Below, one piece after another: positions 6,388-41,367 of a stretch of DNA of 64,000 nt. A program made the position numbers and the translations under genes. The notes beneath the pieces were generated by a model. That model did no database searches and was not told the origin of the DNA. It saw only the letters and a program-made list of their open reading frames with translations. Every line of letters starts with the position of its first letter. Within the stretch, counting starts at the first letter, position 1. This DNA comes from Candidatus Poriferisocius sp. GTDB taxonomy: Bacteria; Actinomycetota; Acidimicrobiia; Acidimicrobiales; Bin134. The stretch spans positions 2,834,782 to 2,898,781 of the forward strand of contig NZ_OZ242338.1 of assembly GCF_965208475.1 (NCBI RefSeq), written 5' to 3'.

Positions 6388-6715
6388 CGTTGTCGAACTG
6401 GATCTCGGATTTCCCTTTGGCCGCGAGGCGGGGTTTCGCCACCCCGCAGTCGTAGTGACAGCCCAAAGAGTGCTCGACGCCAGGCCCAGCGTGGTTCAAG
6501 TGGTGCCACTGACTTCGCAACTTCGAGGATTTGCCTCGGAGGTGGAGCTAGAGGCCGATCCGCAGAACGGGTTGGATCGCGCCTCGGCCGCCCAGTGCCA
6601 GCACGTCCGCGCCGTCGCGGCAAGCCGAATCGAGGGCGCAAGGGGCAACATCGGAGGGACAGCGCTCACCCAAATCCGCGAAGTCCTGGGACTGATCCTC
6701 GATGTCCCGGGTTGA
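6371..6715 (+). CDS. mazF: MazF/PemK-family endoribonuclease toxin
   Basis: Internal ATG 6371 of ORF 6284..6715. GDVVELDLGFPFGREAGFRHPAVVV and VVPLTSQ are typical of the PemK/MazF fold. Confidence 0.8.
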   Translation: MLTSGDVVELDLGFPFGREAGFRHPAVVVTAQRVLDARPSVVQVVPLTSQLRGFASEVELEADPQNGLDRASAAQCQHVRAVAASRIEGARGNIGGTALTQIREVLGLILDVPG

Positions 6716-16660: not shown

Positions 16661-17403
16661 GCAACTGGCCGACCCTCAAGCGGGAACCGGTCCAACTTCC
16701 GGTCTTTCCCGGACTTGATGAGCTTCTATGGCTCACCCTGATCGAGGTGGGCGGTGTGAGGCGGGGAGAATGGACGCTGATCGGCGGCCAGATGGTCTTG
16801 CTCCACGCCATAGAACACGGAATCCAGCCACCCCGCGTGTCCACAGACCTCGATGCCCTCGTCAATGCTCGCGTCGCCGCAGATAGCGTGCGCCGGTTTG
16901 TAAGAGAGCTCGAATCGCGTGGCTTCGAGCTCACCGGCACTTCACCCGAGGGCCTTGCCCATCGCTATGACCGCGATGGCGTGAGCATTGACGTATTGGC
17001 CCCGGAGGGACTTGGTCAGCGGTCTGACCTCACCACGACTCCACCTGGCCGCACCCTTCAAGTGCCAGGCGGCACACAGGCGCTGAAGCGAACCGAATTC
17101 GTGCCCGTCCAGATTCTCGACTCGACAGGTCTCGTGCCCAGACCCTCCTTGCTGGGAGCGATCATCTGCAAAGCAGAAGCCGTCGACGCCGACGACATGC
17201 CTGAGGCACAGCGGACGGATTTGGCCCTGCTATTGAGCATGGTTGACCAGCCTCTCATGTTGGCCAACGAGCTAACCCCAAAGGACAGAACCCGGATCCG
17301 CAGGAGAGCGGAGATGAGCGATCCGGATCAACTCGCATGGCGCGCCCTTGATGCCGAGGGCGCTAGCCGTGGTCGAGCCGCCTACCGTCTCCTATCCCGC
17401 TAG
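16657..17403 (+). CDS. Nucleotidyltransferase-fold protein (AbiEii/DUF1814-like toxin candidate)
   Basis: LIGGQMVLLHAIEHGIQPPRVSTDLDALV (GG...DxD) and a later SIDVL resemble Pol-beta-type NTase motifs. Confidence 0.45.
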   Translation: MSNWPTLKREPVQLPVFPGLDELLWLTLIEVGGVRRGEWTLIGGQMVLLHAIEHGIQPPRVSTDLDALVNARVAADSVRRFVRELESRGFELTGTSPEGLAHRYDRDGVSIDVLAPEGLGQRSDLTTTPPGRTLQVPGGTQALKRTEFVPVQILDSTGLVPRPSLLGAIICKAEAVDADDMPEAQRTDLALLLSMVDQPLMLANELTPKDRTRIRRRAEMSDPDQLAWRALDAEGASRGRAAYRLLSR

Positions 17404-21189: not shown

Positions 21190-22374
21190 ATGCCATCGAG
21201 TATCTTTGCCACACCCGAACCGGAAGATACCGACCTGCTGGTAATCGATGAGATCGAGCGCTTGCGGCACGAGCTCTCCCAATACGTTCGGCACAAGCCC
21301 CGAAGGTGGGCAGGCCATCTAAGGAGAATGAGCCTGGCCCGGGCAGTCAGAGGCTCTAACTGGATCGAGGGTTACCGAGCGTCATTGGATGACGTGCTGG
21401 ATGCCATCGAAGGAGAAGAACCGCTGGACACCTCCGAGGAAACCAGGCTGGCATTGACCGGCTACCGGGACGCCATGACCTACGTGCTCCAGCTTGCCGA
21501 AGCCGAGACCATCGTCGATCAATCCCTCTTGAAGTCGCTCCACTTCATGATGACCAAGCATGATCTGCGCGCCCGGCCCGGCCTATACAGAAAAGGAGAT
21601 GTCTGGGTGTCCGACGAAAATGGGACCCGCGTCTACGACGCGCCCGACGCAGCCCTGGTCGAACCACTCATAGGCGAGCTTGTCGAATCCCTCCAAGGGG
21701 ACGGGCCTGTGCCTGTCATATTCCGGGCCGCGATGGCTCATCTCAACCTGGTGATGATCCACCCCTTCCGCGACGGGAACGGACGCATGGCTAGAGCCCT
21801 GCAAACAATGGTGCTCTCAGGCGAGGGCATCGTCTCCCCTGTCTTCTCGTCAGTGGAGGAATATCTGGGGCGAAACACCGACGACTACTACGCGATTCTC
21901 TCCGAAGTCGGCCAGGGAAGTTGGCACCCGGAGAACTCGGCCCGGCCGTGGATTCGATTCATGCTCAGAGCCCACTATCGACAGGCGTGGACAATGCAGA
22001 GGCGGATTCATGAAACCGAGCACCTGTACGACAGCATCACCCAACTCGTCCACCGCAACAGCCTTCCGAATCGGGTCACCGGCGCACTGGCCGATGCAGC
22101 CCGAGGCCGCCGATTGCGCCGGTCGATCTACACGCACCTCGTGGAGCTGACCGAAGGCGACGCGATCTCCGACCTCTCCGCCAGCCGAGACTTGAAGGCC
22201 ATGGTCGACGCCGGAGTCCTCGAACCAAAGGGAGCGGGACGGGGGCGCATCTACCACGGCTCCGATGAGCTACGCAGCCTATGGCTCGACGTCCGAGCCA
22301 ACCGGCCGGCAAGAGCCGACGATGATCCCTACGTCACACTCCCCCAGCGGCCCTTGCCAGGAATCTCGGGCTGA
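21190..22374 (+). CDS. Fic-family protein (class II, N-terminal auto-inhibitory helix) with a winged-helix-like C-terminus
   Basis: Fic motif HPFRDGNGRMAR. Inhibitory motif SNWIEG, which fits (S/T)xxxE(G/N). Confidence 0.85.
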   Translation: MPSSIFATPEPEDTDLLVIDEIERLRHELSQYVRHKPRRWAGHLRRMSLARAVRGSNWIEGYRASLDDVLDAIEGEEPLDTSEETRLALTGYRDAMTYVLQLAEAETIVDQSLLKSLHFMMTKHDLRARPGLYRKGDVWVSDENGTRVYDAPDAALVEPLIGELVESLQGDGPVPVIFRAAMAHLNLVMIHPFRDGNGRMARALQTMVLSGEGIVSPVFSSVEEYLGRNTDDYYAILSEVGQGSWHPENSARPWIRFMLRAHYRQAWTMQRRIHETEHLYDSITQLVHRNSLPNRVTGALADAARGRRLRRSIYTHLVELTEGDAISDLSASRDLKAMVDAGVLEPKGAGRGRIYHGSDELRSLWLDVRANRPARADDDPYVTLPQRPLPGISG

Positions 22375-22552
22375 TCTACACAACCCACTGAAGAAGCCAA
22401 CAGCATTTGACGGAAAGGAACTGTCGTCGGCCAATGAACGCGTTTCAGTCAAATATCGCCACCACGATCATGATGGTCAGCAGCAGCGTGAAGAAGTTGA
22501 TGATGATGCCCGGAACCACAATGACGTCACTGGGGGCGGGTATTCTCTGAAT

Positions 22553-23470
22553 ATGGCTGGTCAGATGGCTCCGGTGCCTTCAGTAGACGGGGATGAGGCA
22601 CTGGCTGTGCTGCTTGATGAAGGGGTGGTTTGGGGGGATTCCAGCGAGTGGCTGCCGAGGTTGCCGAATGGGTCGGTGGACCTCTTTTTCATGTCGCCGC
22701 CCTATGCCGATGCTCGGGCGTATTCCAAGATCAGCCCGGACAGGTATGTGGAGTGGTTCCTGCCCTTTGCCGATGCCATGCTTCGGGCCGCCACGGACAC
22801 CGGTTCGTTCGTGCTCAACATCAAAAACCGGGTGGCCAAGTCGGGGCCGCTGCGGGGCCAGCGACATCCGTACGTGTACCAACTGGTGATCGCTCTGCAA
22901 GACATGGGGTGGCGGTGGACGGAGACGTACATCTGGGGCAAGCCCAATGCCATCCCTGGTCGGTTCGGACCACGGACCAAGGACGCGTTCGAGTACGTGT
23001 ACCACTTCACAAAGGGACCAAATCCGTACTTCGACTTGGATGCTGTACGTGTCCCGTATCGAGCAGATGAAGCTGAGATCAAACGGCGGCTCAAAGACAC
23101 CAATGGCCGTCGGAACACTGATGCCGGATTCGGCCGGGACCGCACCCGCACCTACGGCCGAGGCGGTGCCGACCCTGGGAATGTGATCAACGTGGGCCAG
23201 ACCTACAACCAGCACAAGGGCCCTGCCGGACAGCACACCGCAGTCATGCCCGAAGGTTTGGCTGAGTTCTTTGTGAAGGCAGCCTGCCCACCTGAAGGAA
23301 TCGTCATCGACCCATTTGCCGGGTCGGGGACCACGGTTACTGTTTCCCGCCGACATGGGCGCCACTCCGGTGGGATTGAACTGCATGCCGAGTATGCAGC
23401 GGTTGCCAAGGAGCGCCTGGCCAGCGACTTCGTCCAGGAGGAGTTGGGGCTGCTCCGTGTCGCTAACTGA
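22553..23470 (+). CDS. Beta-class DNA methyltransferase (N4-cytosine or N6-adenine)
   Basis: Internal ATG 22553. Motif IV FMSPPYAD precedes motif I DPFAGSGTT, which is the N6_N4_Mtase permutation. Confidence 0.85.
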   Translation: MAGQMAPVPSVDGDEALAVLLDEGVVWGDSSEWLPRLPNGSVDLFFMSPPYADARAYSKISPDRYVEWFLPFADAMLRAATDTGSFVLNIKNRVAKSGPLRGQRHPYVYQLVIALQDMGWRWTETYIWGKPNAIPGRFGPRTKDAFEYVYHFTKGPNPYFDLDAVRVPYRADEAEIKRRLKDTNGRRNTDAGFGRDRTRTYGRGGADPGNVINVGQTYNQHKGPAGQHTAVMPEGLAEFFVKAACPPEGIVIDPFAGSGTTVTVSRRHGRHSGGIELHAEYAAVAKERLASDFVQEELGLLRVAN

Positions 23471-28882: not shown

Positions 28883-31189
28883 ATGACCGACGAGACGGCG
28901 AGCAGGCCTGAGCCCTATGAGGGATGGGAGGGGCGGGCGGGCCGCACGGTGGCCGGCTCCGATCCGTGGTGGCCTGAGGCGGTGCGGGCGCCCGAGGGCG
29001 CGCCCAACATCGTGGTGGTGCTGGTGGACGACCTGGGCTTCGCCGACTTGGGCTGCTACGGCTCGGAGATCGACACCCCCCACATCGACAAGATGGCGGC
29101 CGAGGGGCTGCGCTACCTCAACTTCCACGTCAATCCCATGTGCTCGCCCACCCGGGCGTCGCTGCTCACCGGGCTCAACCACCACGATGTGGGGGTGGGC
29201 CATGTGTGCCACTCCGACCCCGGCTACCCCGGCTACACCTCCGAGCTCACCGAGCACTGCGCCACGTTGGCCGAGATCCTGAGGGCAGGGGGCTACGCCA
29301 CCTTGATGGTGGGCAAGTGGCATCTGTGCAAAGACTCCAACCTGGTGGGCCCCCGCCACTCGTGGCCCCTTCAGCGGGGCTTCGACCACTACTACGGCTT
29401 CCTCGACGGGTTCACCAACTTCCACCACCCCCACCGGCTGATCCGAGACAACAGCGTGGTGCGCACCGACCAATACCCCGACGACTACTACTTCACCGAC
29501 GACATCACCGACGAGGCCATCTCCATGGTGCGCGAGCAGAAGGCGGCCCGGCCCGACCAGCCGTTCTTCTTGTACCTGTCGCACGGGGCAGTTCATGCCC
29601 CGCTCCAGGCCAAGCAGGCCGACATCGACAAGTACCGGGGGGCCTACAACGCCGGCTGGGACGAGATCCGCCATCGCCGCTACCGCCGCCAGATTGAGCT
29701 GGGCATCATCGACGCCGACACCGCGCTGCCGCCCCGCAACTCCGAGGAGCGCAACGACGTCACCCCGTGGGACGAGCTGTCCACCACGCAGCAGGAGGTG
29801 TTCGCCCGCTACATGGAGGTGTTCGCCGCCATGGTGGACAACGTCGACCAGAACCTCGGGCGGCTTCGAGATGCCCTGGAGGAGTTGGGCGAGTGGGACA
29901 ACACGCTGGTGCTGTTCACCTCCGACAACGGGGCGTCCCGCGAGGGCGAGGACACCGGCTGCTCGCAGTACTTCGAGGTGCTGTCGCCCACCCCCGGCGA
30001 CATCGACGTTGACCACGCCCGCCTTGATCAGCTGGGCGGCCCCCAGACCCTGGCCCACTATCCCCGGGGCTGGGCCATGGCCGGAAACACGCCCCTGCGG
30101 CTGTACAAGTGCAACACCCACGCCGGGGGGCACCAGGTGGCCATGATCTCGTCGTGGCCCCAGCGCATCGCCGACCCCGGCGGGTTCCGCCGCCAGTACC
30201 TGCACATCACCGACGTGCTGCCCACCGTGCTCGACATCGTGGGGCTCAACGCTCCCACCGAGCGCAACGGCCAGCCGCTCAAGGGTCCGCTGGTGGGGGC
30301 CAGCTTCGCCCCCACGTTCGTCGACGGCGATGCCCCCGAGCACCACACCGAGCAGTACTACGAGCAGATCGGCCACCGGGGGTTCTACCGCGACGGCTGG
30401 GAGGCGGTCACTCTGCACCTGCCGATGACCCCGTTCGGCGACCACGAGTGGGAGGTGTACAACCTGGCCGACGACCCCACCGAGACGGTGGATCTGTCGG
30501 AAGCTGAGCCCGAGCGGCGCCAAGAGCTGATCGACGCCTGGGAGGAGGCTGCCCACCGCTATCAGGTGTACCCCCTCGATGAGGGCTCGATGCTCAAGTT
30601 CGTGCAGCGGCCTGAGTCGGAAGCGGTGTATGAGACGCCAGTGCGGATCACGCCGGGCACCGACACGCTGGAGCGCTACCGGAGCATGAAGATGATCCAG
30701 GCCCGGTCGTTCGCTGTGGACGTCGAGTTCGACTACGCCTCAGGCGACCAGGGGATGCTGGTGGCCCACGGCGATCAGGGCGGCGGCTACGCCTGCTACA
30801 TCGAGGGTGGCGAGGTGGTCTACGTCCACAACGGCTACGGCCACATGCGGCTGCTCAACGGTGGCCAACTGGCCGAGGGCCGGCGCAGCGTGCAACTCGC
30901 CTTCACCATCACCGATGGGTTCGCCTGGGATCTGCGGATGCTGGTGGACGGCGTCGAAGTAGCCGCGGACGAGAACTTCACCGGCATGTGGACCATGGCC
31001 CCCTTCGAGGGCATCGACGTGGGCATCGACCGCCGCTCCCCCGTCTCCTGGGACATCTACCAGCGCCACGGCCCCTTCCCCTACACCAACACCATCGACT
31101 CCGTCACCTACACCCCCGGCGAACAAGGCCGCATGGCCTCGGTACACACCACCCAAATCCTCAAACAAATGGGCTCCCGCTTCGAATGA
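28883..31189 (+). CDS. Arylsulfatase (formylglycine-dependent)
   Basis: VVVLVDDLGFADLGCYG and the sulfatase signature CSPTRASLLTG. 768 aa. Confidence 0.85.
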   Translation: MTDETASRPEPYEGWEGRAGRTVAGSDPWWPEAVRAPEGAPNIVVVLVDDLGFADLGCYGSEIDTPHIDKMAAEGLRYLNFHVNPMCSPTRASLLTGLNHHDVGVGHVCHSDPGYPGYTSELTEHCATLAEILRAGGYATLMVGKWHLCKDSNLVGPRHSWPLQRGFDHYYGFLDGFTNFHHPHRLIRDNSVVRTDQYPDDYYFTDDITDEAISMVREQKAARPDQPFFLYLSHGAVHAPLQAKQADIDKYRGAYNAGWDEIRHRRYRRQIELGIIDADTALPPRNSEERNDVTPWDELSTTQQEVFARYMEVFAAMVDNVDQNLGRLRDALEELGEWDNTLVLFTSDNGASREGEDTGCSQYFEVLSPTPGDIDVDHARLDQLGGPQTLAHYPRGWAMAGNTPLRLYKCNTHAGGHQVAMISSWPQRIADPGGFRRQYLHITDVLPTVLDIVGLNAPTERNGQPLKGPLVGASFAPTFVDGDAPEHHTEQYYEQIGHRGFYRDGWEAVTLHLPMTPFGDHEWEVYNLADDPTETVDLSEAEPERRQELIDAWEEAAHRYQVYPLDEGSMLKFVQRPESEAVYETPVRITPGTDTLERYRSMKMIQARSFAVDVEFDYASGDQGMLVAHGDQGGGYACYIEGGEVVYVHNGYGHMRLLNGGQLAEGRRSVQLAFTITDGFAWDLRMLVDGVEVAADENFTGMWTMAPFEGIDVGIDRRSPVSWDIYQRHGPFPYTNTIDSVTYTPGEQGRMASVHTTQILKQMGSRFE

Positions 31190-31275
31190 TGGGATTGCTA
31201 TAAAATATATTGAAATTTCCAAGACGTGGCGGCAGACTGACAGACGATATTTCAGTTCACGGCATTGGAGATAAT

Positions 31276-31291
31276 GTGCTACAAATAGCAC
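31276..31291. promoter_or_regulatory. Palindrome GTGCTA-CAAA-TAGCAC abutting the phd start codon (candidate antitoxin operator)
   Basis: Read directly. Lies in an AT-rich spacer (31195-31292) that also carries TTGAAAT ... ATTTCAG. Confidence 0.4.
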
Positions 31292-31292
31292 A

Positions 31293-31565
31293 ATGGATTC
31301 GATTGGGATTCGGGAGCTGCGGCAACGAGCCAGCGAGTACTTGCGCCGGGTCGAAGCCGGGGAGACATTCCAGGTGACAGATCATGGTCGGCCGGTGGCG
31401 CTGTTGGGTCCAATCCCAGACGTCTCTCCGTTGGAGCGACTGAGAGCCTCAGGTGAGGTCGATTCTGCCGTGCATGAGGGCCCATTCCCAGACCCCATTG
31501 AACCTGATCCTGGTGCAGAGCTACCGTCAGCGGTTCTATCCAGGCTTCGCGCTGACGAGAGATGA
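31293..31565 (+). CDS. Phd/YefM-family antitoxin
   Basis: IGIRELRQRASEYLRRVEAGETFQVTDHGRPVALLGPI is the canonical Phd/YefM N-domain. Confidence 0.8.
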   Translation: MDSIGIRELRQRASEYLRRVEAGETFQVTDHGRPVALLGPIPDVSPLERLRASGEVDSAVHEGPFPDPIEPDPGAELPSAVLSRLRADER

Positions 31566-31759
31566 GCTCACAACCAGCGACCTATCTAGACTCATCGGCC
31601 ATCGTCAAGCTTGTCATCGACGAACCAGAGTCGGCTGCCTTGCAACAGTTCCTCCACCAACAGAAGCCATTGGTCTCCAGCGCCCTGGCCCGAGCCGAGG
31701 TATCACGGGCGGTTCTGGCATTCGGCCCCGCGGCACTAGCGGCCGCACAGGAGGTTGAA

Positions 31760-32713
31760 TCACGCCGGGTTTGGTAGAGACTGTTTTTGTTGGGTCACGG
31801 CCGGGGTGGCTGTGGTGTTGTTATGGTAGGCGGTTTCGTGGTCGGCGGGGGTGGTGTAGGTGTATCGGCCTTTGAGGAGTTGGCTGTGGCTGCGTCGGTT
31901 GTTGTACCAGTCGATGTATTCGAGGGTGGCGAACTCGACGTCGCTTTGTCCCTGCCAGGGGCCGTGCGGGTAGATGAGTTCCCATTTGAACAGGCCGTTG
32001 AAGCTCTCGATCATGGCGTTGTCGTAGCTGTCGCCTTTGCTGCCGACCGAGGCGACGATGTCGTTGTCGTCGAGGCGCTGGCTGTAGCGGATCGACACAT
32101 ATTGCGATCCGCGGTCGCTGTGGTGGACGGCTTTGTCGATGCTGTGGCCGCAGCGCCGGCGGGCGGCGATGGCCATGTCCAAAGCGTCGAGCGCCAACTC
32201 GGTGCGCAAAGAGCGCGACGCCTGCCAGCCCAGGACCCGGCGGGAGTAGGCGTCGACGACGAACGCCATGTAGACCCAGCCGGAGCGGGTCCGCACCCAG
32301 GTGAGGTCAGCGAGCCACAGCCGATCCGGGGCGTCGGCGCCGAAGTCCCTGTTCACGATGTCCTCGGGCATCTCGCCGGCGGCGGGCGTGGTGGTGCGGG
32401 GCTTTTTGCCCCGGCGGGCGCCCGCCAGGCCCATCTGGCCCATCAGCCGCTCGACGGTGCAGCGGGCCACCCGCACGCCCTCGACGCGGTTTAGGTGGTC
32501 CCACACCTTGGCCGCGCCGTAGGCGCCGTAGTTCGCCTTGTGCGCCCTAGCGATCACCGGGCGCAGCCGGGCGTCGCGCAAAGCACGCTCCGACGGGGCC
32601 CGCTTTTTGGCCGCCCAGTAGGTGGACGGGGCGATCCCGACGCCGTGCTCTGTGAGCACCGCGCAGATCGGCTCGACCCCGAACCGGTGCCGGTAGGCGT
32701 CGATGAACGCCAC
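31760..32713 (-). CDS. IS3 transposase OrfB (DDE integrase core)
   Basis: FGVEPICAVL, WLADLTWV, HHSDRGSQYVS and YDNAMIESFNG are DDE/rve motifs. It is in the -1 frame relative to orfA and overlaps its stop. Confidence 0.85.
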   Translation of the reverse strand: MAFIDAYRHRFGVEPICAVLTEHGVGIAPSTYWAAKKRAPSERALRDARLRPVIARAHKANYGAYGAAKVWDHLNRVEGVRVARCTVERLMGQMGLAGARRGKKPRTTTPAAGEMPEDIVNRDFGADAPDRLWLADLTWVRTRSGWVYMAFVVDAYSRRVLGWQASRSLRTELALDALDMAIAARRRCGHSIDKAVHHSDRGSQYVSIRYSQRLDDNDIVASVGSKGDSYDNAMIESFNGLFKWELIYPHGPWQGQSDVEFATLEYIDWYNNRRSHSQLLKGRYTYTTPADHETAYHNNTTATPAVTQQKQSLPNPA

Positions 32714-33033
32714 TACAGCCTGGACTGGCGGTCGAGCTCCGCCCCGAAGAAAGCCGACGCCGCTTTCAATATCTCGTTAGCCCGGCGCAGCTCGCGGTTC
32801 TCGCGCTCGAGCTTTTGGAGCCGCCCGCGCTCCGCGGTCGTCACCCCCGGGCGCATCCCGCCGTCGACCTCCGCTCGGCGCACCTGATTGCGCACCGTCT
32901 CCGCCGACGGGCCCAGCTTGTCAGCGACCGAGCAGACCGCCTCCCACTGCGACCCGTGATGCCGCTCGTTGTCCAGCACCATCCGCACCGCCCGCTCACG
33001 CAACTCGGCGGGATATCTCCCATGATTTGGCAT
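32713..33033 (-). CDS. IS3 transposase OrfA (HTH/leucine-zipper part)
   Basis: YPAELRERAVRMV ... LERENRELRRANEILKAASAFF is typical IS3 OrfA. Confidence 0.85.
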   Translation of the reverse strand: MPNHGRYPAELRERAVRMVLDNERHHGSQWEAVCSVADKLGPSAETVRNQVRRAEVDGGMRPGVTTAERGRLQKLERENRELRRANEILKAASAFFGAELDRQSRL

Positions 33034-33301
33034 TGCTCCATCCTCTCAAGGAACAGAGCCTCCACAAAACACGGGGTGATTCAGGTGCTGGGGCGGATTG
33101 ATCTCCTTCGAGTGAACAACCGGATTCTCGAAATGGCCAGCACCCTTAAACCCAATTCGCTCCGAACCCTCGATGCCATCCACCTGGCTAGTGCTCTGTC
33201 TCTCGAAGACTCCCTGACTGATTTCGTCTGCTACGACCGTCGACTCTCCCAAGCAGCCGCCCACCAAGGCTGGGCAATCCAGAACCCGACTTAGGCGTTG
33301 C

Positions 33302-33317
33302 TCAGTCCCAGCGGGGG
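33302..33317. repeat. 16-bp direct repeat TCAGTCCCAGCGGGGG, copy 1
   Basis: Read directly. Intergenic, 8 nt after the vapC stop and 35 nt beyond the hipA stop. Confidence 0.9.
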
Positions 33318-33351
33318 GCGACGCGGCGCACTTGCTGGTAGATACTCAGTC

Positions 33352-34641
33352 CTAACTCGAAGCCAAGCCGGCCAGGCATTGGTCTCGGCGGAAGGCGGTC
33401 ATAGATATAAGGCTTTGCACGACAGGCAGCGCCCTTAGTTCGGGAGAGAGTTCGTCGGCCGCCTGCTGCATGGCTTCGGGGGCGGCCTTGGCGATGGCGG
33501 TGGCCCGGTCGACTCCTTCGGATTCGGGCAGCCCTATTGCACTAGCCGCCATTTCCCATGCTTGTTTGCTCTCGGCGGTGAGGATCCGACGGTCGGGCAG
33601 GACCGACATTGCCAGCGAGTAGGAGCGGTAGTGGTGAGGGTCGTAGGGCATCATCGACCAGATGTCATAGAGCGGAGCAAGGCGGGCCCTTCCGGCGGCG
33701 AGCAGCAGGCTGTAGTTCTTGGAGTGGCCATCGGTGTTGCAAATGACCCAGTTGAACACCTGGGCGTCGAAGAAGACCCGTAGGTCGGTGTCGCGGTCGA
33801 CGGAGTGGTCGGCAATGAGGCGGGCGAGGCGACGCAGGCTGTGGCCCTCTCCTCTTTCGTTCTGATAGATGGGAACGTCGGGCTCGCCACATGCCTGATG
33901 CAGATCCTCCTGGTGTATGCGTCGAATGGAACCATCCACATCAAGGCGGTCAAAACGGCGGACAACCAGCACCGGATGGCCAGCAACAACTTCAACCTCA
34001 GTCCGAACTGCGGGAAGACCGCAGTGTCTAGCCACCGTCAAACAGAGGTGCTCGTTGACCGATTGATCGTCCAAGTCCCTCATCGACGGTTTGAGGATGT
34101 GGGTAGTCGGCACGCTTCCCATTGCCTCACCCCATCTTCCCCCTTCCCGATGCAACGCAGTCTTGGCTTGGGCGCCTCCGAGGCTGAAGGCGCTGCGCCC
34201 GGTGGGACGCACCCATTGGGCAGACTCCCTCACCATCCCCAAGACGAGCTCCTCGAAGCTGGTGTCATCCAGCCACTCAACACTGCCGTTGCGCTCTTCG
34301 AGGGCATCGAAGTTCTCTGGCCGACAGAATCGGACCGCGCCGGGACAATCCAAACCGATGCGAGTGCTCAGCAGGTCGAACGGGGAGGCTGACATCGCCT
34401 GGTACTTCGCTGCCCAGCGTTCTCGGACATCTGGGTTACCGGGCAACAATCCCGACATCCATCCCTCCACCCGTTGGTCCTCGATCTCACCCTCTTCCAG
34501 CGGAAGAGAGAGCGAAAGGGGCGAAACATCGCGGCGGGAGGAATAGTCGCCGTCATAGGAGAGGCACAGCATCGGCCCTCGCCGATCAATGCGGCCGACA
34601 AAATCGTCACCGATGAAGACGAGCAGTGAATCCTCCGGCAT
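33352..34641 (-). CDS. hipA: HipA-family serine/threonine kinase toxin
   Basis: 429 aa. HipA N-domain, SLGGAQAKTAL, and the catalytic-loop-like NTDGHSKNYSLL. Confidence 0.85.
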   Translation of the reverse strand: MPEDSLLVFIGDDFVGRIDRRGPMLCLSYDGDYSSRRDVSPLSLSLPLEEGEIEDQRVEGWMSGLLPGNPDVRERWAAKYQAMSASPFDLLSTRIGLDCPGAVRFCRPENFDALEERNGSVEWLDDTSFEELVLGMVRESAQWVRPTGRSAFSLGGAQAKTALHREGGRWGEAMGSVPTTHILKPSMRDLDDQSVNEHLCLTVARHCGLPAVRTEVEVVAGHPVLVVRRFDRLDVDGSIRRIHQEDLHQACGEPDVPIYQNERGEGHSLRRLARLIADHSVDRDTDLRVFFDAQVFNWVICNTDGHSKNYSLLLAAGRARLAPLYDIWSMMPYDPHHYRSYSLAMSVLPDRRILTAESKQAWEMAASAIGLPESEGVDRATAIAKAAPEAMQQAADELSPELRALPVVQSLISMTAFRRDQCLAGLASS

Positions 34642-34650
34642 TCGTGCTGC

Positions 34651-34941
34651 TCACGCGGGGCCGCTGAGGCTCTCGAACACCCGATCAATATCGGTGCGTG
34701 GGCGCTCGTGCAAGGCGAGCGATAATCCCAGCACACCAGCCAGACGCATCATTCGGTGGGTTCCGCAGCTTCCCTTTCCGTTCTCAAACCCTGAGAGCCA
34801 CTGGACCGACACGCCAGCTTGTCGAGCGGTCTCCTCTTGGGTCATGCCCAGCTCCTTCCTTCTCTCCTTGAGCGCCCGAGACACCTGCGGCGGCGTCCGC
34901 AGATCCCAATTCAGAACCCCCAGAGTGTGCTGCTCCCTCAT
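34651..34941 (-). CDS. hipB: HipB-like XRE-family HTH antitoxin
   Basis: LKERRKELGMTQEETARQAGVSVQWLSGFENGKG. Lies 9 nt upstream of hipA. Confidence 0.8.
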   Translation of the reverse strand: MREQHTLGVLNWDLRTPPQVSRALKERRKELGMTQEETARQAGVSVQWLSGFENGKGSCGTHRMMRLAGVLGLSLALHERPRTDIDRVFESLSGPA

Positions 34942-34963
34942 CTCATACCCCGTAACTTCGCGG

Positions 34964-35067
34964 ATTCATGAATACATTATCACTTCGACAGAACTTCGTA
35001 TATAAGTTAAGTTTGTCTTCGATTCTCATAACTTCAGAGATATACGAAGTATCCCTAGGCAAGGATA
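34964..35067. promoter_or_regulatory. hipBA control region with palindromes: ATTCATGAAT (34964-34973), 11-bp inverted repeat ACTTCGTATAT/ATATACGAAGT (34993-35003 and 35040-35050), and TATCC-N8-GGATA (35050-35067)
   Basis: Read directly in the AT-rich spacer upstream of hipB. The last element equals the E. coli HipB operator consensus. Confidence 0.5.
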
Positions 35068-35095
35068 GAACTGCGGGGCAGCGACGGCTAGGTGT

Positions 35096-35111
35096 TCAGT
35101 CCCAGCGGGGG
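35096..35111. repeat. 16-bp direct repeat TCAGTCCCAGCGGGGG, copy 2
   Basis: Read directly. Lies between the hipBA control region and the membrane-protein gene. Confidence 0.9.
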
Positions 35112-35119
35112 CAGGTACG

Positions 35120-35941
35120 GTGAATGGGGGGTTCTTTGAGCCAGCAGCGGGGTTGCCGATGAAACCGGGGGGGCCGAGTGGACGGATTCCGATGAATCGA
35201 CCCGTAATTCCGGCAGCCTTGCTGGTGGTGACCTTGCCGGTGGCTGTTTGGCATTTGTTTGGGGACCAGACGGATTACTCGGATGAATCTCTTCGGCTGT
35301 ACTTCATCTGGAGAGCGCCGGGGTGGCTGAACGAGCTGGCCCACCCGATTGGGCTCGTCTCCTCGCTGATGGTGGTGGCCGCGCTCATTTGGCTGGCGGT
35401 GGAGTATTGGCTGGAGCATTGGCGCAAGTGGTGGTTCATGGCGCTGGGGTCGCTCTGCATGCTGGGGCTCTATGCCGGGTTGGGGGGAAGGTACTCCACC
35501 AAGGGCATCACCGAGGAGGACTACGTAAACGTCAACGGCTGGTTGAGCTTGTTGAGCGTGCCCGGTGTTCTTGCCCTGCTCTTCACCATGCTCTGTGTGG
35601 CCGCATCCAAGGTCAGGCCGGAGTCGACTGCTCGCTACCTCTCCAAAGTGGGGCTCAAGCCGACGAGGCGGACGGCGATGGGTGCGCTCCTGCTGGGCGG
35701 TCTCATCTCAGCCGGTCTTTCGCTTGGCATCGCCGCAGCCAAGACCGTGGCATCACCCTCACAGAGCCTGTCGCTGAATGAGTCCATCAACCTGTCGGTG
35801 TTCTTCCTACCCCCTCTCTTATTCGTCGGGGTAGTGGGCCTTCTCACCTACCTGGCGATCATGGCCTTGGGGCTCACAGCCACCTGGCTGCTGCTTTTCC
35901 GCACCGCCGACTGGATCCGCAAGCGAACGGTCTACTGGTAG
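35120..35941 (+). CDS. Integral membrane protein, unknown function
   Basis: 273-aa ORF with at least six hydrophobic segments. The start is uncertain (GTG 35120 or a downstream ATG). Confidence 0.5.
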   Translation: MNGGFFEPAAGLPMKPGGPSGRIPMNRPVIPAALLVVTLPVAVWHLFGDQTDYSDESLRLYFIWRAPGWLNELAHPIGLVSSLMVVAALIWLAVEYWLEHWRKWWFMALGSLCMLGLYAGLGGRYSTKGITEEDYVNVNGWLSLLSVPGVLALLFTMLCVAASKVRPESTARYLSKVGLKPTRRTAMGALLLGGLISAGLSLGIAAAKTVASPSQSLSLNESINLSVFFLPPLLFVGVVGLLTYLAIMALGLTATWLLLFRTADWIRKRTVYW

Positions 35942-35944
35942 CGG

Positions 35945-35960
35945 TCAGTCCCAGCGGGGG
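35945..35960. repeat. 16-bp direct repeat TCAGTCCCAGCGGGGG, copy 3
   Basis: Read directly. Forms the last four codons plus stop (P-R-W-D-stop) of the minus-strand SnoaL-like gene. Confidence 0.9.
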
Positions 35961-36373
35961 CGGGGGGATTGGGGGAGCCAGGAGTCGGGTTGCTGGGCGA
36001 TTAAGTAGTTGTAGTCCCAGTATTCGCGCCAGTGGGCGATCTTGTTGTCGCGGATTTGGAGGCGGCACAGCACGGGGAGGCTGGCAACGGTGCCGTCGGG
36101 GTGGTGCCAGACTTCGACTCGCTCGACGAGCACGTTGTCGCCGCTCACCCAGATGTCGGTGACACCGAGGTCGAAGCGGTCCAGGGCGCTCAGGCCCACC
36201 TCCAGCTTGGCGATGATGCCGGCGTGGCCGACGGTGCCGCCGGAGTCGGTCTCGAAGGGCATGTCCTGGTAGGTGCCGTCTTCGGTGAACAGCTCGGCCA
36301 CCGCGGGCCAGTCCATCCGCTCCAGGGCGGCGAACAGGGCCTCGGCCAGTGCTCGATTCTCAGCGTCGCTCAT
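35945..36373 (-). CDS. SnoaL/NTF2-like (limonene-epoxide-hydrolase-like) protein
   Basis: ATG 36373 (MSDAENRALAEALFAALERMDWPAVAELFTEDGTYQDMPF). 142 aa alpha+beta barrel pattern. Confidence 0.6.
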   Translation of the reverse strand: MSDAENRALAEALFAALERMDWPAVAELFTEDGTYQDMPFETDSGGTVGHAGIIAKLEVGLSALDRFDLGVTDIWVSGDNVLVERVEVWHHPDGTVASLPVLCRLQIRDNKIAHWREYWDYNYLIAQQPDSWLPQSPRPRWD

Positions 36374-36380
36374 GGTTGCC

Positions 36381-37469
36381 TCACTCGGGAGTGGGCAGGC
36401 CCAGGTACTGGGCCAGCATCTGGGTAGAGGGGTTGTTCTGTTCGTACTGGGCACCGTCCTCGGCACTGAAGGCCCCATACTTCACCTGCATGTTCACGAT
36501 GGCCACCATGATGATGCAAAAGCGCAGACACCCCCACGCCTCGAAGTAGTCCACGTGCTCGGCCTTGCGGCCCATAGCCTGCTCCCAGCGGGCGATGGTG
36601 CCCTCCTGGTCGGCGAAGCCGGGCAGCCAGTCGACGCCGGCACCCTCGCTCAAGAATCGGTTCATGTACAAGAACCAGCCCAGGTCGACCTCGCCGGGCC
36701 CCAGATCGGCCATCTCCCAGTCGAACACGGCCATCACCTTGAAGTCTTCGCCGTACATGAGGTTGCTGGGCCGGGCGTCGCCCCAGTTCAGCTCGATAGG
36801 CATCGAGCCTGAGGGATCGTTAGCGTCGAACCAGCCCAGCGCGGCGTCGATAAGCGGCTTGGGCCGGTCCTCAGCGGCCCAGTTGGCGTAGTAGCGCTGA
36901 TAGCCGAGCTGCTGGGCAAAACCGGGGCCGCCGTATTGAGGGCGCTCCACGAAGTCGAATCCGTTGGCCTTCCAGTCGGTTTTGGCCACCGCGGCCAGCG
37001 TGTCCACCGACGAGTTGTACAGCGCGGCCTGCTGTTCGGGGGTGGCCTCGAATACCCAGCCCTCCGAGAAGAACGGTGGATTGTCGGAGGGCACCCGGCC
37101 GTGCAGGCGCTCCATGATGAAGAACGGCTCCCCCAGCACTTCTCCGGTGTCCTCCACCCACAGGATCTCGGGCACCGGCACGCTGCCGCAGGCGGCCATG
37201 TTCTGCATGCTCCGGTACTGCACGCTCATGTCATAGGTGGGGAAGATGGCGTAGTCGGTGGGCCGCTTGCGCACCACGATGCCCGAATCCCGGATCTGGC
37301 CGTTGAGGGTGTAGACGGCGTCGCACACCAAGGTCTCGTTGCTGAACCCGGAGGACTCGGGGTTCACCAGAAAGGTCACTTCGGCATCGGACACGCCGGG
37401 GCGGGTGTTCATCCAGTCGGACACCGAGGCCTTGAGGGCGTCGATGTCGCGGTCTTGGGGAATAGCCAT
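36381..37469 (-). CDS. Phosphotransferase (APH/choline-kinase-like) family protein
   Basis: NWGDARPSNLMY (catalytic-loop-like) and DWEMADLGPGEVDLGW, typical of APH-family kinases found next to acyl-CoA enzymes. Confidence 0.75.
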   Translation of the reverse strand: MAIPQDRDIDALKASVSDWMNTRPGVSDAEVTFLVNPESSGFSNETLVCDAVYTLNGQIRDSGIVVRKRPTDYAIFPTYDMSVQYRSMQNMAACGSVPVPEILWVEDTGEVLGEPFFIMERLHGRVPSDNPPFFSEGWVFEATPEQQAALYNSSVDTLAAVAKTDWKANGFDFVERPQYGGPGFAQQLGYQRYYANWAAEDRPKPLIDAALGWFDANDPSGSMPIELNWGDARPSNLMYGEDFKVMAVFDWEMADLGPGEVDLGWFLYMNRFLSEGAGVDWLPGFADQEGTIARWEQAMGRKAEHVDYFEAWGCLRFCIIMVAIVNMQVKYGAFSAEDGAQYEQNNPSTQMLAQYLGLPTPE

Positions 37470-37505: not shown

Positions 37506-39818
37506 TCAGGCGGGGACGGGCACAACCTCCACCTTGATCCCGTTCACGATGGCATTGCCGGAGATCTCGTCCACCAGCTCGCCCGGGGCCAAAAGGTTGT
37601 TGTTGACCCCGGCGAACTCCTTGGCCACCGAGAGCTGCACCCCGTCGAGGTTGTGGCCCCAGCCGTGGGGCAGCGACACCACGCCGGGCATCATCTCGTC
37701 GCTCACCTCAACGGGCACCTCGATGCTGCCGACCTCGGTGCTCACCCGGGCCACCGATCCTTCGGCCAGGCCGATCCCCGCCGCGTCGTCGGGATGCACA
37801 ATTAGCGTGCAGCGGTCCTTGCCCTTCACCAGCACCTTCACGTTGTGCATCCAGGAGTTGTTAGACCGCACATGGCGGCGGCTCACCAGCACCATTCCGT
37901 CGTCGCGCCCCAAGCGGCGCTGGAGCCGGTCCACATCGGCGGTGATGTAGGGCGGGGCCATCTCGATGCGGCCCGACGGGGTGTGGAGGATCTCCGGTAT
38001 CCGGGGCACCATCGGGCCGAAATCGAGGCCGTGGGGGTTGTTTTTGAAGTCCTGCAAGGTGAGTCCGTCGGGATTCTCGCCGTAGCGGTCGCCCCGATGG
38101 CCCACCCGGATCATGAAGTCGGTCATCCGCTCGGGGCCACCGGCGTCGTAGTGCGACAGCACATGGCCAGGATCGAGGCCGAAGAACGTGCAGAGCCCGG
38201 AGAAGAACCCGTCGTCGATGGCGCGCTCGTCGATCTCGCCGTTGGATTGGCCGCCCATCAGCGCGCCCACCCGCACGAGCACCTCCCACTCGTCTGGGCG
38301 GTCGCCGAACTCGAAGATCCGGTCCGACCAGTTGCCCGCGGTGCGGGCGGCCCATGACCAGATCATCTCGTCCCAGTGGGGCTGCTCCAGAGGCGACAGC
38401 CCGGGCAGGATCACATCGGCGTGGCGGGTAGTGGCGTTGACCCAGTTGTCGATGCAGATCATGGCATCCAGCATGGGAAGCACCTCATCGAGGCGACCTG
38501 CCTCGGGCGAGCTGATAACCGGGTTGCCGGCCACCACCACCAGGGCCTTTATCTGGCCCTCGCCGGGGGTCATGATCTCCTCCGACAAACACGACACCGG
38601 CACCTGGCCCAGCACCTCGGGGGCGCCCCGCACCCGGCTGTGCCAGCGGCCGAACTCGGGCTCTTTGGGTGCCTCGAAGTTGAGGGTGGCCATGGCCGGA
38701 GCCACCGGGGTGGCGAACATCATCCCGCCGGGCACGTCGAAGTTGGCGGTGAGCAGGTTCACCACGTCGATGAGCCACGAGGCCAGCGTGCCGAACTCCT
38801 GGTTGCACAGCCCGATGCGGCCGTACACGCTGGCGCTGTCGGCCGCGGCGATCTCCCGAGCCAGCCGGCGGATTTTTTCGGCCGGAATCTGGGTGGTCTC
38901 AACCACCATCTCGGGGGTCCAGTCGGCCACCAGGGCCCGCACCTCGTCGAGGCCGTTCACGTGGCCGGCCATGGTGCCCAGATCCACCAGATCCTCGTCG
39001 AACAGCACATGGCACAGGGCCAACAAGAAGGCGGCATCGGTTCCGGGAGTGATGGGCACCCACTCATCGGCGTGGTCGAAGGTGCCGGTGCGGCGGGGGT
39101 CGATCACCACGCACTTGCCGCCCCGCTCGCGGATCTTGTCCATCTCGCCCAGCACGTCGGGGCAGGCCAACAGGCTGCCCTGGGAGGCGTGGGGGTTGGC
39201 ACCCATCACCACCAGGTACTGGGTGCGCATGATGTCGGGGGTGGGGAACGTCCAAGAGTTGCCGTACATGCACACCGACGACACGTTCTTGGGCCACTGG
39301 TCGACGGTGCCCGCCGAGTACCCCATCTGCACGCCCGACAGCATCACCAGCGCGCCCACGTAGCGGCTGATGGAGAAGTTGTGGGCCGCAGGATTGCCGA
39401 TGTAGTAGGTCATGGCCTCGACGCCGTAGGTGTCGCGCACGCCGTGGAGCAGCTCCTCGCAGCGGGCATAGGCCTCTTCCCAGGTGGCCTCCTGGAAGGT
39501 GCCGCTGGAGTCTTTGACCAGCGGCACCCGCACCCGGTCGGGATCGGTGTGCAAATGCCCCAGAGTGGTGCCCTTGGGGCAGATGAAGCCCTTGCTCCAC
39601 ACGTCGTCGCGGTCGGGCCGGATGGGGGGCAACACCTTGGTGCCCTCGGTTTTGATCACCATCCCGCACATGGCCTCACACAGCGGACAGGTCCTCAAAT
39701 GGGTCTTAACCTGGCTGCCATTGCCAGACGGTTCGGGGGCTGGGGTTTCGGCGCTCACGCCGGGGATTTTACTCACATGGGGCGAAAGCGGCTTCTGTCC
39801 GACGAACATGGCCGACAA
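37506..39818 (-). CDS. Molybdopterin-dependent oxidoreductase (formate dehydrogenase-like MopB family)
   Basis: N-terminal Fe-S motif CPLCEAMCGM...CPKG. 770 aa with molybdopterin-binding and C-terminal beta-barrel segments. Confidence 0.85.
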   Translation of the reverse strand: MSAMFVGQKPLSPHVSKIPGVSAETPAPEPSGNGSQVKTHLRTCPLCEAMCGMVIKTEGTKVLPPIRPDRDDVWSKGFICPKGTTLGHLHTDPDRVRVPLVKDSSGTFQEATWEEAYARCEELLHGVRDTYGVEAMTYYIGNPAAHNFSISRYVGALVMLSGVQMGYSAGTVDQWPKNVSSVCMYGNSWTFPTPDIMRTQYLVVMGANPHASQGSLLACPDVLGEMDKIRERGGKCVVIDPRRTGTFDHADEWVPITPGTDAAFLLALCHVLFDEDLVDLGTMAGHVNGLDEVRALVADWTPEMVVETTQIPAEKIRRLAREIAAADSASVYGRIGLCNQEFGTLASWLIDVVNLLTANFDVPGGMMFATPVAPAMATLNFEAPKEPEFGRWHSRVRGAPEVLGQVPVSCLSEEIMTPGEGQIKALVVVAGNPVISSPEAGRLDEVLPMLDAMICIDNWVNATTRHADVILPGLSPLEQPHWDEMIWSWAARTAGNWSDRIFEFGDRPDEWEVLVRVGALMGGQSNGEIDERAIDDGFFSGLCTFFGLDPGHVLSHYDAGGPERMTDFMIRVGHRGDRYGENPDGLTLQDFKNNPHGLDFGPMVPRIPEILHTPSGRIEMAPPYITADVDRLQRRLGRDDGMVLVSRRHVRSNNSWMHNVKVLVKGKDRCTLIVHPDDAAGIGLAEGSVARVSTEVGSIEVPVEVSDEMMPGVVSLPHGWGHNLDGVQLSVAKEFAGVNNNLLAPGELVDEISGNAIVNGIKVEVVPVPA

Positions 39819-39833
39819 ACAACATGGTTGGAG

Positions 39834-39870
39834 TACTAACCCATACTAATTCATGTCACATTAGTAGCAA
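39834..39870. repeat. 37-bp direct repeat, left copy (TACTAACCCATACTAATTCATGTCACATTAGTAGCAA)
   Basis: Read directly. Matches the right copy at 32 of 37 positions. Contains TACTAAT-N9-ATTAGTA. Confidence 0.85.
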
Positions 39871-39899: not shown

Positions 39900-41300
39900 G
39901 TGGCAAAGGTGCTCACACCCCCAACTTGGACTGATCTGGCCTCAAAAGTCCCACCAGAAAATCATCACCGCGTGATTGAAGTGCTGACGTCAGGAAGGCC
40001 AATTGATCCCAAGGGCCGATACCTTCATTGGGACGAGATGCGGCACCGGACCCCTCCCGACGGCCTCACTCTAGACGAGTGGTGGATGGGCACTGCCTAC
40101 AGCCGGTTCGCAGTTGCCCGCCCGCTACCTCTAACCAGTGTGACAGGAGAGCCGTTCCGGATCTCCAACATCGACCCAATACAGGAAGCGGTTCACCGCA
40201 TCGACCAGTACGCCAGCGGGCAGATCCAGGCCGATGGCGCCATCGCCAACGTGCAGTCCAGCGACCGCTACCTGGTTTCTTCGCTCATGGAAGAGGCAAT
40301 CACCTCCAGCCTCTTGGAGGGCGCCGCCACCACTCGGCGAGCCGCCAAAGAAATGCTGCGAACGAAGCGGTCACCCAAGACCCACGGCGAGCGCATGGTG
40401 TTCAATAACTTCAACGCGATGATCGCCGCCGAGCAGTTGGCCCGAGAGGGCCGCCCGCTGACGCCGGGGGATGTATTGGAACTGCACCGCATCGTCACCG
40501 ACGGCACGTTGGACGACGAGTCGGAATCCGGGCGCATCCAGCAGCCCGGCGAAGAGCGGGTTGTTGTGGTTGACAGCGATGACACAGTGATTCATCGACC
40601 GCCGCCGGCCGAGGAACTCCCAGGACGGCTAGAACAACTCTGCGAGTTCGCCAATGGTGAGAACGTCGAAGGTTTCCTACACCCAGTGGTCCGAGCCATT
40701 GTCCTCCATTTCTGGGTGGGGTACGACCATCCCTTTGTGGACGGCAACGGGCGTACCGCCCGGGCGCTGTTCTACTGGTCGATACTGAGATCCGGGTACT
40801 GGCTGGCCCAGTACATCTCCATCTCTGCCATCCTGCGCAACGCTCCTGGGCAATACAAGAAGTCATACCTGAAGGCTGAGACTGACAGCAACGATGCCAC
40901 TTACTTCGTGATCTACCAGCTTCAGGTCATGGAGCAGGCAATCGACAGCCTTCGGGACTACCTGGCCCGAAAGACCTCAGAGATCAATAACGTCAAACAG
41001 CGCTTGCGCAGTGTCTCCAGGCTCAACAACCGCCAACTCGCCATCATCAACGACGCCTTGCACGACCCCTCCCAGGTCTTCACCATCCAAGGCCAGGCAC
41101 AACTGCACCGCGTGGTATACCAGTCGGCTCGTACCGATTTGCTCGCCCTAGAAGCCATGGGGCTTTTCGCCAAAGCCAAGTTGGGCAATCAGTTCGAGTT
41201 CTATGCGGTCGGCGACATCCAAGATCGGCTACATCACCTGGTTGAGGCTGAGAAGCAACAAATCGCGCACGAGGTTGAGGCTGCGGTACGACGAAGCTGA
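39900..41300 (+). CDS. Fic-family protein (class II) with extended N-terminal and C-terminal domains
   Basis: Fic motif HPFVDGNGRTAR. Inhibitory motif SSLLEG. GTG start. Confidence 0.85.
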   Translation: MAKVLTPPTWTDLASKVPPENHHRVIEVLTSGRPIDPKGRYLHWDEMRHRTPPDGLTLDEWWMGTAYSRFAVARPLPLTSVTGEPFRISNIDPIQEAVHRIDQYASGQIQADGAIANVQSSDRYLVSSLMEEAITSSLLEGAATTRRAAKEMLRTKRSPKTHGERMVFNNFNAMIAAEQLAREGRPLTPGDVLELHRIVTDGTLDDESESGRIQQPGEERVVVVDSDDTVIHRPPPAEELPGRLEQLCEFANGENVEGFLHPVVRAIVLHFWVGYDHPFVDGNGRTARALFYWSILRSGYWLAQYISISAILRNAPGQYKKSYLKAETDSNDATYFVIYQLQVMEQAIDSLRDYLARKTSEINNVKQRLRSVSRLNNRQLAIINDALHDPSQVFTIQGQAQLHRVVYQSARTDLLALEAMGLFAKAKLGNQFEFYAVGDIQDRLHHLVEAEKQQIAHEVEAAVRRS

Positions 41301-41330: not shown

Positions 41331-41367
41331 TACTAATCGATACTAATTGATATCAAATTAGTAGCAA
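41331..41367. repeat. 37-bp direct repeat, right copy (TACTAATCGATACTAATTGATATCAAATTAGTAGCAA)
   Basis: Read directly. Lies between two convergent 3' ends. Contains TACTAAT-N9-ATTAGTA with the central palindrome TTGATATCAA. Confidence 0.85.

Follow-up and report, generated by a model that had tools for sequence, protein, structure and literature searches.

We analysed a window of 64,000 nucleotides (positions 2,834,782 to 2,898,781 of contig NZ_OZ242338.1, assembly GCF_965208475.1) from Candidatus Poriferisocius sp., which we take to be an Acidimicrobiia lineage associated with sponges. In this window, a hypervariable islet of 4.75 kb (31190-35944) lies between the stop codons of two core genes, a SnoaL_2/LEH-family gene (SnoaL below) and a sulfatase gene. 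The islet is made of small, self-contained modules, namely a phd/PIN pair, a hipBA pair and a lineage-specific membrane-protein gene. One 16-nt sequence, TCAGTCCCAGCGGGGG, marks the limits of the hipBA and membrane-protein modules (Table 1). Two of its three copies are scars, that is, stubs of the SnoaL 3′ terminus.

Performing an exact search, we found TCAGTCCCAGCGGGGG exactly three times in the window, always on the plus strand, at the positions reported in a preliminary description of this DNA. There was no fourth match in the 64-kb window on either strand with up to 2 mismatches. That description had held three copies to be beyond chance, and indeed an exact match arose in 0 of 100 dinucleotide-preserving shuffles. 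Copy 3 is, as had been proposed, the coding end of the minus-strand SnoaL gene. Read on that strand, it is C CCC CGC TGG GAC TGA, the last base of a proline codon followed by R, W, D and the stop. The PRPRWD-stop C-terminus is kept in SnoaL orthologues at 80-95% identity, which carry the NCBI name Candidatus Poriferisocius sp. Copies 1 and 2 are intergenic, again as described, and both are non-coding stubs of the SnoaL end. The stop codon of the PIN toxin gene, vapC, is at 33292-33294, and copy 1 starts 8 nt further on. In the window, resemblance to SnoaL outside the 16 nt of copy 1 falls short of significance (p = 0.34), though the orthologous junction in a relative (L012) retains 22-24 nt of SnoaL. 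That copy 1 stops so sharply at 16 nt is probably due to the loss of one unit from the tandem CCCCCG·CCCCCG of SnoaL and the L012 stub. At copy 2, a degenerate SnoaL-like similarity runs on past the 16-mer to about 35160 (weak; shuffle test p ~0.01).

The contents of the two intervals also stood as first described. Pfam matches and a repeat search place hipA, hipB and a palindromic region in the 1794-bp interval, and the 849-bp interval is one membrane-protein gene. With a predicted HipA kinase, a Cro/C1-type helix-turn-helix (HTH) antitoxin and palindromic operators, the hipBA cassette fits a type II toxin–antitoxin module as far as its sequence goes. The membrane-protein open reading frame (ORF) has about 6 predicted hydrophobic or transmembrane segments and no match in Pfam, NCBIfam or PADLOC. 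An identical protein in the source annotation begins at Met25 (35192). Its family has 34 members (clusters) among 5.8 billion proteins, none with a Pfam domain, and the few members with a name are Candidatus Poriferisocius sp. The membrane genes fall into at least 3 divergent types with 31-44% mutual identity, all resident in this islet; Memb is the type of the window, and Memb2 and Memb3 are two divergent types.

Table 1. Features of the islet and of its flanks in the window, in order of position.
Feature	Position (nt)	Strand	Evidence or remark
Sulfatase, conserved right flank	28883-31189	+	convergent with SnoaL
phd/PIN (vapBC-type) cassette, third cassette	31293-33294	+	Pfam PhdYeFM_antitox, PIN
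phd-family antitoxin	31293-31565	+	Pfam PhdYeFM_antitox
PIN toxin, two pieces	31562-31777 and 33091-33294	+	Pfam PIN; split by IS3
IS3-family insertion sequence	31756-33083	-	inside PIN gene
16-mer copy 1	33302-33317	-	non-coding SnoaL 3′-end stub, between hipA stop and vapC stop
hipBA cassette unit	33302-35095	-	1794 bp including one stub; Pfam, NCBIfam
hipA	33352-34641	-	Pfam HipA_C and Couple_hipA
hipB	34651-34941	-	Pfam HTH_3
Palindromic operator/control region upstream of hipB	34993-35050		21-nt inverted repeat
16-mer copy 2	35096-35111	-	non-coding SnoaL 3′-end stub, between membrane-gene 5′ side and hipB promoter
Membrane-protein cassette unit	35096-35944	+	849 bp; one ORF, 35120-35941
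16-mer copy 3	35945-35960	-	true SnoaL 3′ terminus, coding (P R W D stop)
SnoaL_2/LEH-family gene	35945-36373	-	closes the Mo-oxidoreductase–APH–SnoaL operon; source of the stubs
APH-family phosphotransferase, conserved left flank	36381-37469	-	
Molybdopterin oxidoreductase, conserved left flank	37506-39818	-	

For comparison, we collected 32 loci from distinct species-level genomes with the APH protein adjoining SnoaL as the query, and 14 extra loci were added by protein look-ups. The whole set holds about 45 loci from about 35 species, which are referred to here by L numbers. The modules of all loci were mapped by tblastn and motif search, and architectures were set against relatedness on a neighbour-joining tree of APH. 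With the 16-mer of the SnoaL 3′ end as the motif, we scanned the islets, 736 kb of flanking DNA in 46 loci and the remaining 61 kb of the window at ≤2 mismatches. The motif had 55 matches inside islets and none in the 736 kb or the 61 kb outside them. The preliminary description had named a dispersed, REP-like (repetitive extragenic palindromic) element as the outcome that would count against it, and in the DNA scanned the motif is not dispersed.

In every locus, the extra copies sit at module junctions in the orientation of SnoaL. Copies longer than 16 nt extend upstream into SnoaL coding sequence. The first base of a copy is SnoaL nt 365, 373, 385, 406, 408 or 414, and the end is always the stop codon. 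Because every copy ends at the stop codon, we take the copies to be stubs of the SnoaL 3′ terminus. Their length varies from 65 nt (L005), 57 nt (L023) and 45 nt (L024, with a related piece in L020) to 24 nt (L010), 22 nt (L012) and about 16 nt (the window, L006, L008/L009 and L033/L039). The internal stubs match the SnoaL-end variants of their own genomes, over 61 nt with 1 mismatch in L023 and with the 'cag' variant in L024. The orthologous stub reads CCCCCGCTGGGACGGA in L009 and CCCCCGCGGGGACGGA in L008, so that these copy-2-type stubs carry 1-2 mismatches, and in L016, L027, L044 and L045 it is strongly decayed. The substitutions in relatives give no sign of purifying selection on the stubs. 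Some SnoaL orthologues (P0002, P0003; L005 2553-2680) read …PAPAGTD… and continue beyond the normal stop codon, as would follow from a slip of one base in the run of Cs immediately ahead of the 16-mer. In L006, SnoaL is missing nt 122-413 and has retained its last 16 nt.

Over the APH tree, the roughly 45 loci show more than 12 architectures with a patchy distribution. The interval is empty in L017, L028 and L034, where a single copy is present and the SnoaL stop is followed after 24-50 nt by the sulfatase stop. It holds only a membrane gene in eight loci, only vapBC in L029 and only hipBA in L043. A membrane gene is combined with vapBC in L008, L009 and L016, with hipBA in L045, and with both in the window and L044; L012 has hipBA, Memb2, vapBC and Memb. 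Thus, the empty site and the single-cassette relatives that the preliminary description had predicted both exist, and instead of the uniform content that would have spoken against it, cassette content is strongly polymorphic. The relatives carry arrays of two to four modules in varied orders, including two more toxin–antitoxin-like pairs, one in L007 and one in L033/L039, recognised by eye from ORF translations. L008, the closest relative of the window on the APH tree, is without hipBA and without IS3. In L001-L003 and L032, hipBA lies upstream of SnoaL. In L038, a hipA 3′ remnant stands alone between APH and an iron-dependent repressor gene (FeR), and hipA of L001 and L032 has an internal deletion (318 aa in L001). 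Like the shortened SnoaL of L006, these pieces are products of the decay of the same modules.

We also checked where relatives of this hipBA occur. Scanning Joint Genome Institute metagenomes with HipA gave one 1.5-kb contig (L040), which reads SnoaL, stub and hipBA, as in L012. The close HipA homologues (76-96% identical) whose contexts were examined are all at this locus, which argues that this hipBA is not a free-roaming cassette. The flanks of the islet behave differently from each other. The Mo-oxidoreductase–APH–SnoaL left flank is constant, whereas the right flank is either a sulfatase block or a FeR block and differs even between sister taxa. Sulfatase-glyoxalase-amidohydrolase alternates with FeR-AMP-ligase-luciferase in this way between sister species (L009 vs L011, L010, L012 and others). 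The SnoaL end is thus also a breakpoint of larger rearrangements or islands.

Comparing close pairs of loci, we could place the module boundaries to the base. The window is colinear with L009 up to …ccgtaccYgCCCCCGCTGGGAC, then carries an extra 1794 bp (hipBA plus one 16-mer), and rejoins L009 at AACGCCTA… of the vapC 3′ flank; hipBA is exactly missing at this point in L008/L009. L012 and L010 form a second precise filled/empty pair between SnoaL and the Memb2 gene, and L043 and L017 a third one at the empty site between SnoaL and sulfatase. End to end, the hipBA cassettes of the window and L012 are 93.8% identical over 1794 nt (90.6% for APH plus SnoaL). The two cassettes have both end sequences in common despite different neighbours, as hipBA stands between the membrane-gene stub and vapC in the window and between SnoaL and Memb2 in L012. 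L024 and L039 are sister species that have two membrane-gene cassettes in common (95% and 87% identical), but the order is reversed between them, and a stub precedes each cassette. The precise filled/empty pairs and the permuted order indicate that the stubs are the exact points where modules have been gained, lost or rearranged.

In some relatives, the duplicated piece is the whole SnoaL gene. In L005, the 65-nt stub adjoins APH, and a full SnoaL stands in a distal position behind a hipA remnant. In L001, where the proximal SnoaL copy is fully lost, hipBA lies upstream of the sole remaining SnoaL, and the sequence upstream of the L001 hipB is homologous to that of L043 from the first base past the stop codon. 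This complementary decay in L005 and L001 suggests that hipBA was flanked by two complete SnoaL genes in an ancestor. The hipA 3′ flank, …gagctagacaatc, is followed by full SnoaL with a 23-nt leader in L005, by 57 nt in L023 and by about 24 nt in L043. The L043 junction falls at CAATC, which is common to the hipA flank and SnoaL, as would be expected of a microhomology deletion.

A chimeric joint is present in L024 (13360-13440) and L020 (13110-13190), where about 20 nt of the sulfatase 3′ end are followed by SnoaL nt 385-429, the membrane gene and the full sulfatase gene. Such a joint is expected if a whole alternative islet allele, cut in both flanking genes, was circularised and then entered by one crossover in the 45-58-nt SnoaL homology. 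Unequal crossover between alleles would give the same joint. Short duplications also occur at other gene ends of the locus. In the APH–SnoaL spacer of L016/L017, L024/L026/L033/L039 and L007, inserts of 24-40 nt are flanked by two copies of the APH 3′ end (CCGAGTGA; as much as 17 nt in L026). At the SnoaL 5′ end, L004/L031 have a tandem duplication of the first ~56 nt, and L030 has a shorter unit 3-4 times.

The repeats are real, and the structural reading of cassettes bracketed by regenerated copies of the SnoaL end is right. As to how it arose, we give a probability of roughly 55% to a recombination hotspot between core genes, in which duplicative, homology-driven recombination between alternative islet alleles was followed by deletion and reshuffling at the stubs. 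This reading builds on the junction stubs and their variable length, the precise presence and absence of modules, the whole-gene duplicate, the chimeric joint, the permuted order and the lack of an integrase. We infer the rest of the scheme as follows. An alternative islet allele would come in from another strain or a sister chromosome and recombine through the common SnoaL end, either by a Campbell-type single crossover of a circularised fragment or by unequal crossover; host recombination would serve for this step. An illegitimate joint or a second joint at short homology would then add the incoming module beside the residents with no exchange, and part or all of SnoaL would be duplicated in the course of the addition. 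Deletion may afterwards trim the surplus SnoaL copy to a short 3′ stub. Stubs of 16-60 nt would in turn act as direct repeats and allow precise deletion, re-insertion and permutation of modules. Post-segregational killing by toxin–antitoxin pairs is established, and an addiction argument can be rested on it: most modules are such pairs and their loss is probably counter-selected, so accretion would be favoured. Recombinants that lose the resident pair would be the ones removed, biasing the hotspot to accretion over replacement. That a fragile G-quadruplex site in the G5CG6ATTG5 tract causes the hotspot is speculation.

Several points weigh against this recombinational origin. RecA-type recombination is inefficient for crossovers in 16-24 nt. 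Independent stubs are all ≤65 nt or else full length, a skew that is not expected of random fragment ends unless deletion is fast, and the stubs of L005 and L023 start within a few bases of each other in different contexts. Many of the 'empty' states could have come about by deletion alone. The three copies of the window are 16/16 identical, while the stubs of the nearest relatives have 1-2 mismatches, and a recent event or gene conversion must therefore be assumed. We saw no circular intermediates and no sign of current activity. The motif and recombinase scans covered the 64-kb window and the islet loci, and no genome was scanned whole.

Other explanations of the stubs have to be set against these data. 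A functional or dispersed element unrelated to SnoaL (a REP-like sequence, a terminator or a regulatory site) is highly improbable. The three exact copies do lie near gene ends and a small CCC…GGG stem is possible, but every copy is co-linear with SnoaL, with the longer ones running into its coding sequence, and the 61 kb plus 736 kb scanned outside islets hold none. Folding the 96-nt contexts of the three copies on both strands gave nothing better than shuffles (z -0.15 to +1.4), and at the stubs there was no dyad symmetry and no hairpin potential beyond shuffled controls. A terminator and promoter scan found nothing at the copies, including no T-run terminator, and Rfam had no match at the 16-mers. 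We also consider it unlikely that the islet is an ancient array with passive scars, whose diversity stems from differential deletion and from the exchange of whole alleles through homologous recombination in the conserved genes on either side, with no role for the stubs. Such an array would explain why distant lineages with decayed stubs have the order membrane gene, stub, hipBA in common (the window, L027, L044, L045), as well as the frequent internal deletions and remnants (L006, L023, L038, L005). Moreover, the divergence of hipBA (94%) is near that of core genes (91%), so that no recent transfer is needed. Against passive scars, the limits of presence and absence fall exactly on stubs in three independent pairs, the same cassette is found at different stubs, and two cassettes stand in a different order in sister species; the chimeric joint is a duplicative addition and not loss alone. 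A transposon with a long target duplication was rejected: the repeat search reported no inverted pairs at the ends of the cassettes, there is no transposase except that of the unrelated IS3, and the length of the duplication varies.

The preliminary description had read the repeats as the products of successive att-like, site-specific insertions. The part of this proposal that stands is that repeats of the SnoaL end bracket the cassettes and that relatives show empty and partial states; a defined att core does not agree with the variable stub length, the whole-gene duplicate, the chimeric joint and the decay. Likewise, of the proposed cassette-accretion site, an integrase-independent, recombinational origin fits better, and an integrase-type mechanism is unsupported. 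No integrase had been seen between the copies, and there is none there, nor elsewhere in the 64-kb window, nor in the islet of any relative; integrase or resolvase domains number 0 in the ~57 window ORFs and 0 in the islet ORFs of ≥60 aa. The only mobility genes in the window and the islets are the IS3 copies of the window and L007. With variable stub extent, whole-gene duplicates, a chimeric joint, stub decay and no recombinase in the window (IS3 apart) or in any islet, a dedicated att/integrase system is not supported. A recombinase encoded elsewhere or on a visiting element, to which the last 16-24 nt of SnoaL would be an attachment site for CIME-type (cis-mobilizable element) or integron-like mobilisation in trans of integrase-less cassettes, is doubtful, if still worth weighing. 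It would readily explain why each cassette lies between direct repeats that match the target gene's 3′ end exactly, why the hipBA cassette starts right after …GGGACTGA and ends …CCCCYGCTGGGACTGA in two contexts, and why the terminal GCTGGGACTGA is the best-kept part of every stub. A second cassette of the window, with a Fic gene, moreover has a long direct repeat on both sides, of which Fic-less relatives have one copy, and this cassette could be another instance of such capture. However, the stubs span 16 nt to the whole gene, and even after hipA alone they measure 16-24 nt (window, L012, L043), 57 nt (L023) or the full gene (L005, L001). An att model does not predict the sulfatase-end fragment in the L024/L020 joint, and the lack of dyad symmetry or a stable hairpin, the decay of stubs in relatives and a hipBA clade that is not seen outside this locus in the examined contexts also speak against it. 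In IMG/VR, the 21-nt pattern had 0 matches, HipA had no relatives, and the 16-mer had 8 single matches at chance level, without extended similarity; no viral contig there joins a SnoaL end to extended homology, and no candidate phage or plasmid attP emerges. In its most specific form, a trans-acting recombinase (or a host Xer-like enzyme) that uses the terminal 16-24 nt of SnoaL for 0.85-1.8-kb toxin and membrane cassettes would amount to an integron-like capture platform without intI or attC hairpins, and this is distinctly unlikely. Homology- or microhomology-driven recombination fits the similar duplications of the end of APH and of the start of SnoaL, and the confinement of hipBA to the locus, better than a dedicated recombinase does.

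We compared the islet with known systems of accretion and exchange. Integrative elements and CIMEs accrete in tandem at the 3′ end of a target gene, as in the ICESt1 type (PMC5704250). The islet resembles CIMEs in that repeats of one gene's 3′ end separate tandem accessory blocks without integration genes and the array grows at the gene end. CIMEs are decayed integrative and conjugative elements (ICEs) or integrative and mobilizable elements (IMEs), with attL/attR of fixed sequence and a dependence on a related integrase. The islet has direct repeats as they do, but the extent of its stubs is not constant as that of an att site is. It also differs in its single modules of 0.85-1.8 kb, its whole-gene duplicate, its chimeric joint with two flanks and the absence of an integrase from about 45 loci. 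Minimal mobile elements (MMEs) are similar in that close relatives have different whole-gene cassettes in the space between one pair of conserved genes; mobility genes are absent, and host recombination is presumed. MMEs are described as sites of replacement, whereas the islet modules accumulate side by side with gene-end stubs at their junctions.

Integron arrays and CALINs (clusters of attC sites lacking integron-integrases) are composed of small, toxin–antitoxin-rich cassettes separated by a recurring short sequence, with attC hairpins and R/L core sites; in integrons, the cassettes are mostly promoterless and co-oriented, and intI, attI and Pc adjoin the array. An array of small, toxin–antitoxin-rich modules with a recurring short spacer is likewise seen in the islet, but it lacks intI, attC-type hairpins and R/L core sites; its modules have their own promoters and mixed orientations, and its spacer is a fragment of the neighbouring gene. 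The tRNA-proximal islands (Prochlorococcus islands or tycheposons) have repeated partial tRNA att sites, and some of their cargo units lack an integrase. The islet shares with them hypervariability, repeats of the 3′ end of a flanking gene and integrase-less cargo. It differs from them in its protein-coding target, in its single modules and in that no tyrosine recombinase or transposase family of that kind was found in the window and the islets. Searching the literature, we found no account of this locus or of a mechanism specific to the taxon, and the genus name appeared only in passing.

The roughly 35 uncultivated sponge-symbiont species offer a natural series of the build-up and reshuffling of toxin–antitoxin and defence-type modules at one chromosomal address, with no sign at these loci that an integrase, transposase or phage is at work. 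The scars, that is, the stubs, the whole-gene duplicate and the chimeric joint with two flanks, make the assembly history of the array unusually legible. If the homology-driven origin is true, short duplications of gene ends may be a general marker of additive recombination at hotspots, and the islet would support the idea that addictive modules bias hotspots to growth. If a recombinase acts in trans, the islet would represent a new cassette-capture system. In the annotation of metagenome-assembled genomes, stubs of the SnoaL type can be mistaken for att sites.

We also noted several features of the modules themselves. The insertion sequence, a member of the IS3 family, has terminal inverted repeats, a 3-bp GGT target duplication and an ALIL frameshift pseudoknot at 32627-32755, which was the sole Rfam match over 30.5-37 kb. 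The preliminary description had put it some 220 bp to the left of copy 1 as the sole mobility gene in the vicinity, and its right end (33083) is indeed 219 bp from copy 1. It breaks the PIN toxin gene and leaves the phd antitoxin gene whole; the phd/PIN cassette is unbroken in L008 and L009. In L007, SnoaL itself is broken by a different IS3-family copy. The GC content at third codon positions (GC3) is 0.70-0.79 in the cassettes versus 0.85-0.92 in the core genes, and the distinct values of the cassettes are consistent with an accessory gene pool.

Finally, the window holds further genes of the toxin type. The Fic gene (39900-41300) matches the PADLOC SoFic model and is bracketed by a 37-nt direct repeat (39834-39870 and 41331-41367; 86% identical, 1497 bp apart), which holds an ACTAAT-N9-ATTAGT palindrome and is unrelated to the 16-mer. 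The Fic-less relatives L001, L029 and L043 have one copy of this repeat between orf292 and the Mo-oxidoreductase gene, and the Fic-bearing relatives have two, so that Fic is another toxin-type cassette whose target is duplicated. A PIN-domain gene (5715-6116) and a MazF/PemK toxin gene (6284-6715), both of low GC3, lie between flavin monooxygenase and deaminase genes and form a further small islet of toxins. At 15995-17403, an HTH_17 protein (excisionase-type HTH) is followed by a 248-aa ORF of no assigned family. A further SoFic-like Fic gene lies at 21190-23470 and overlaps an N6/N4 DNA methylase gene at the latter's start.

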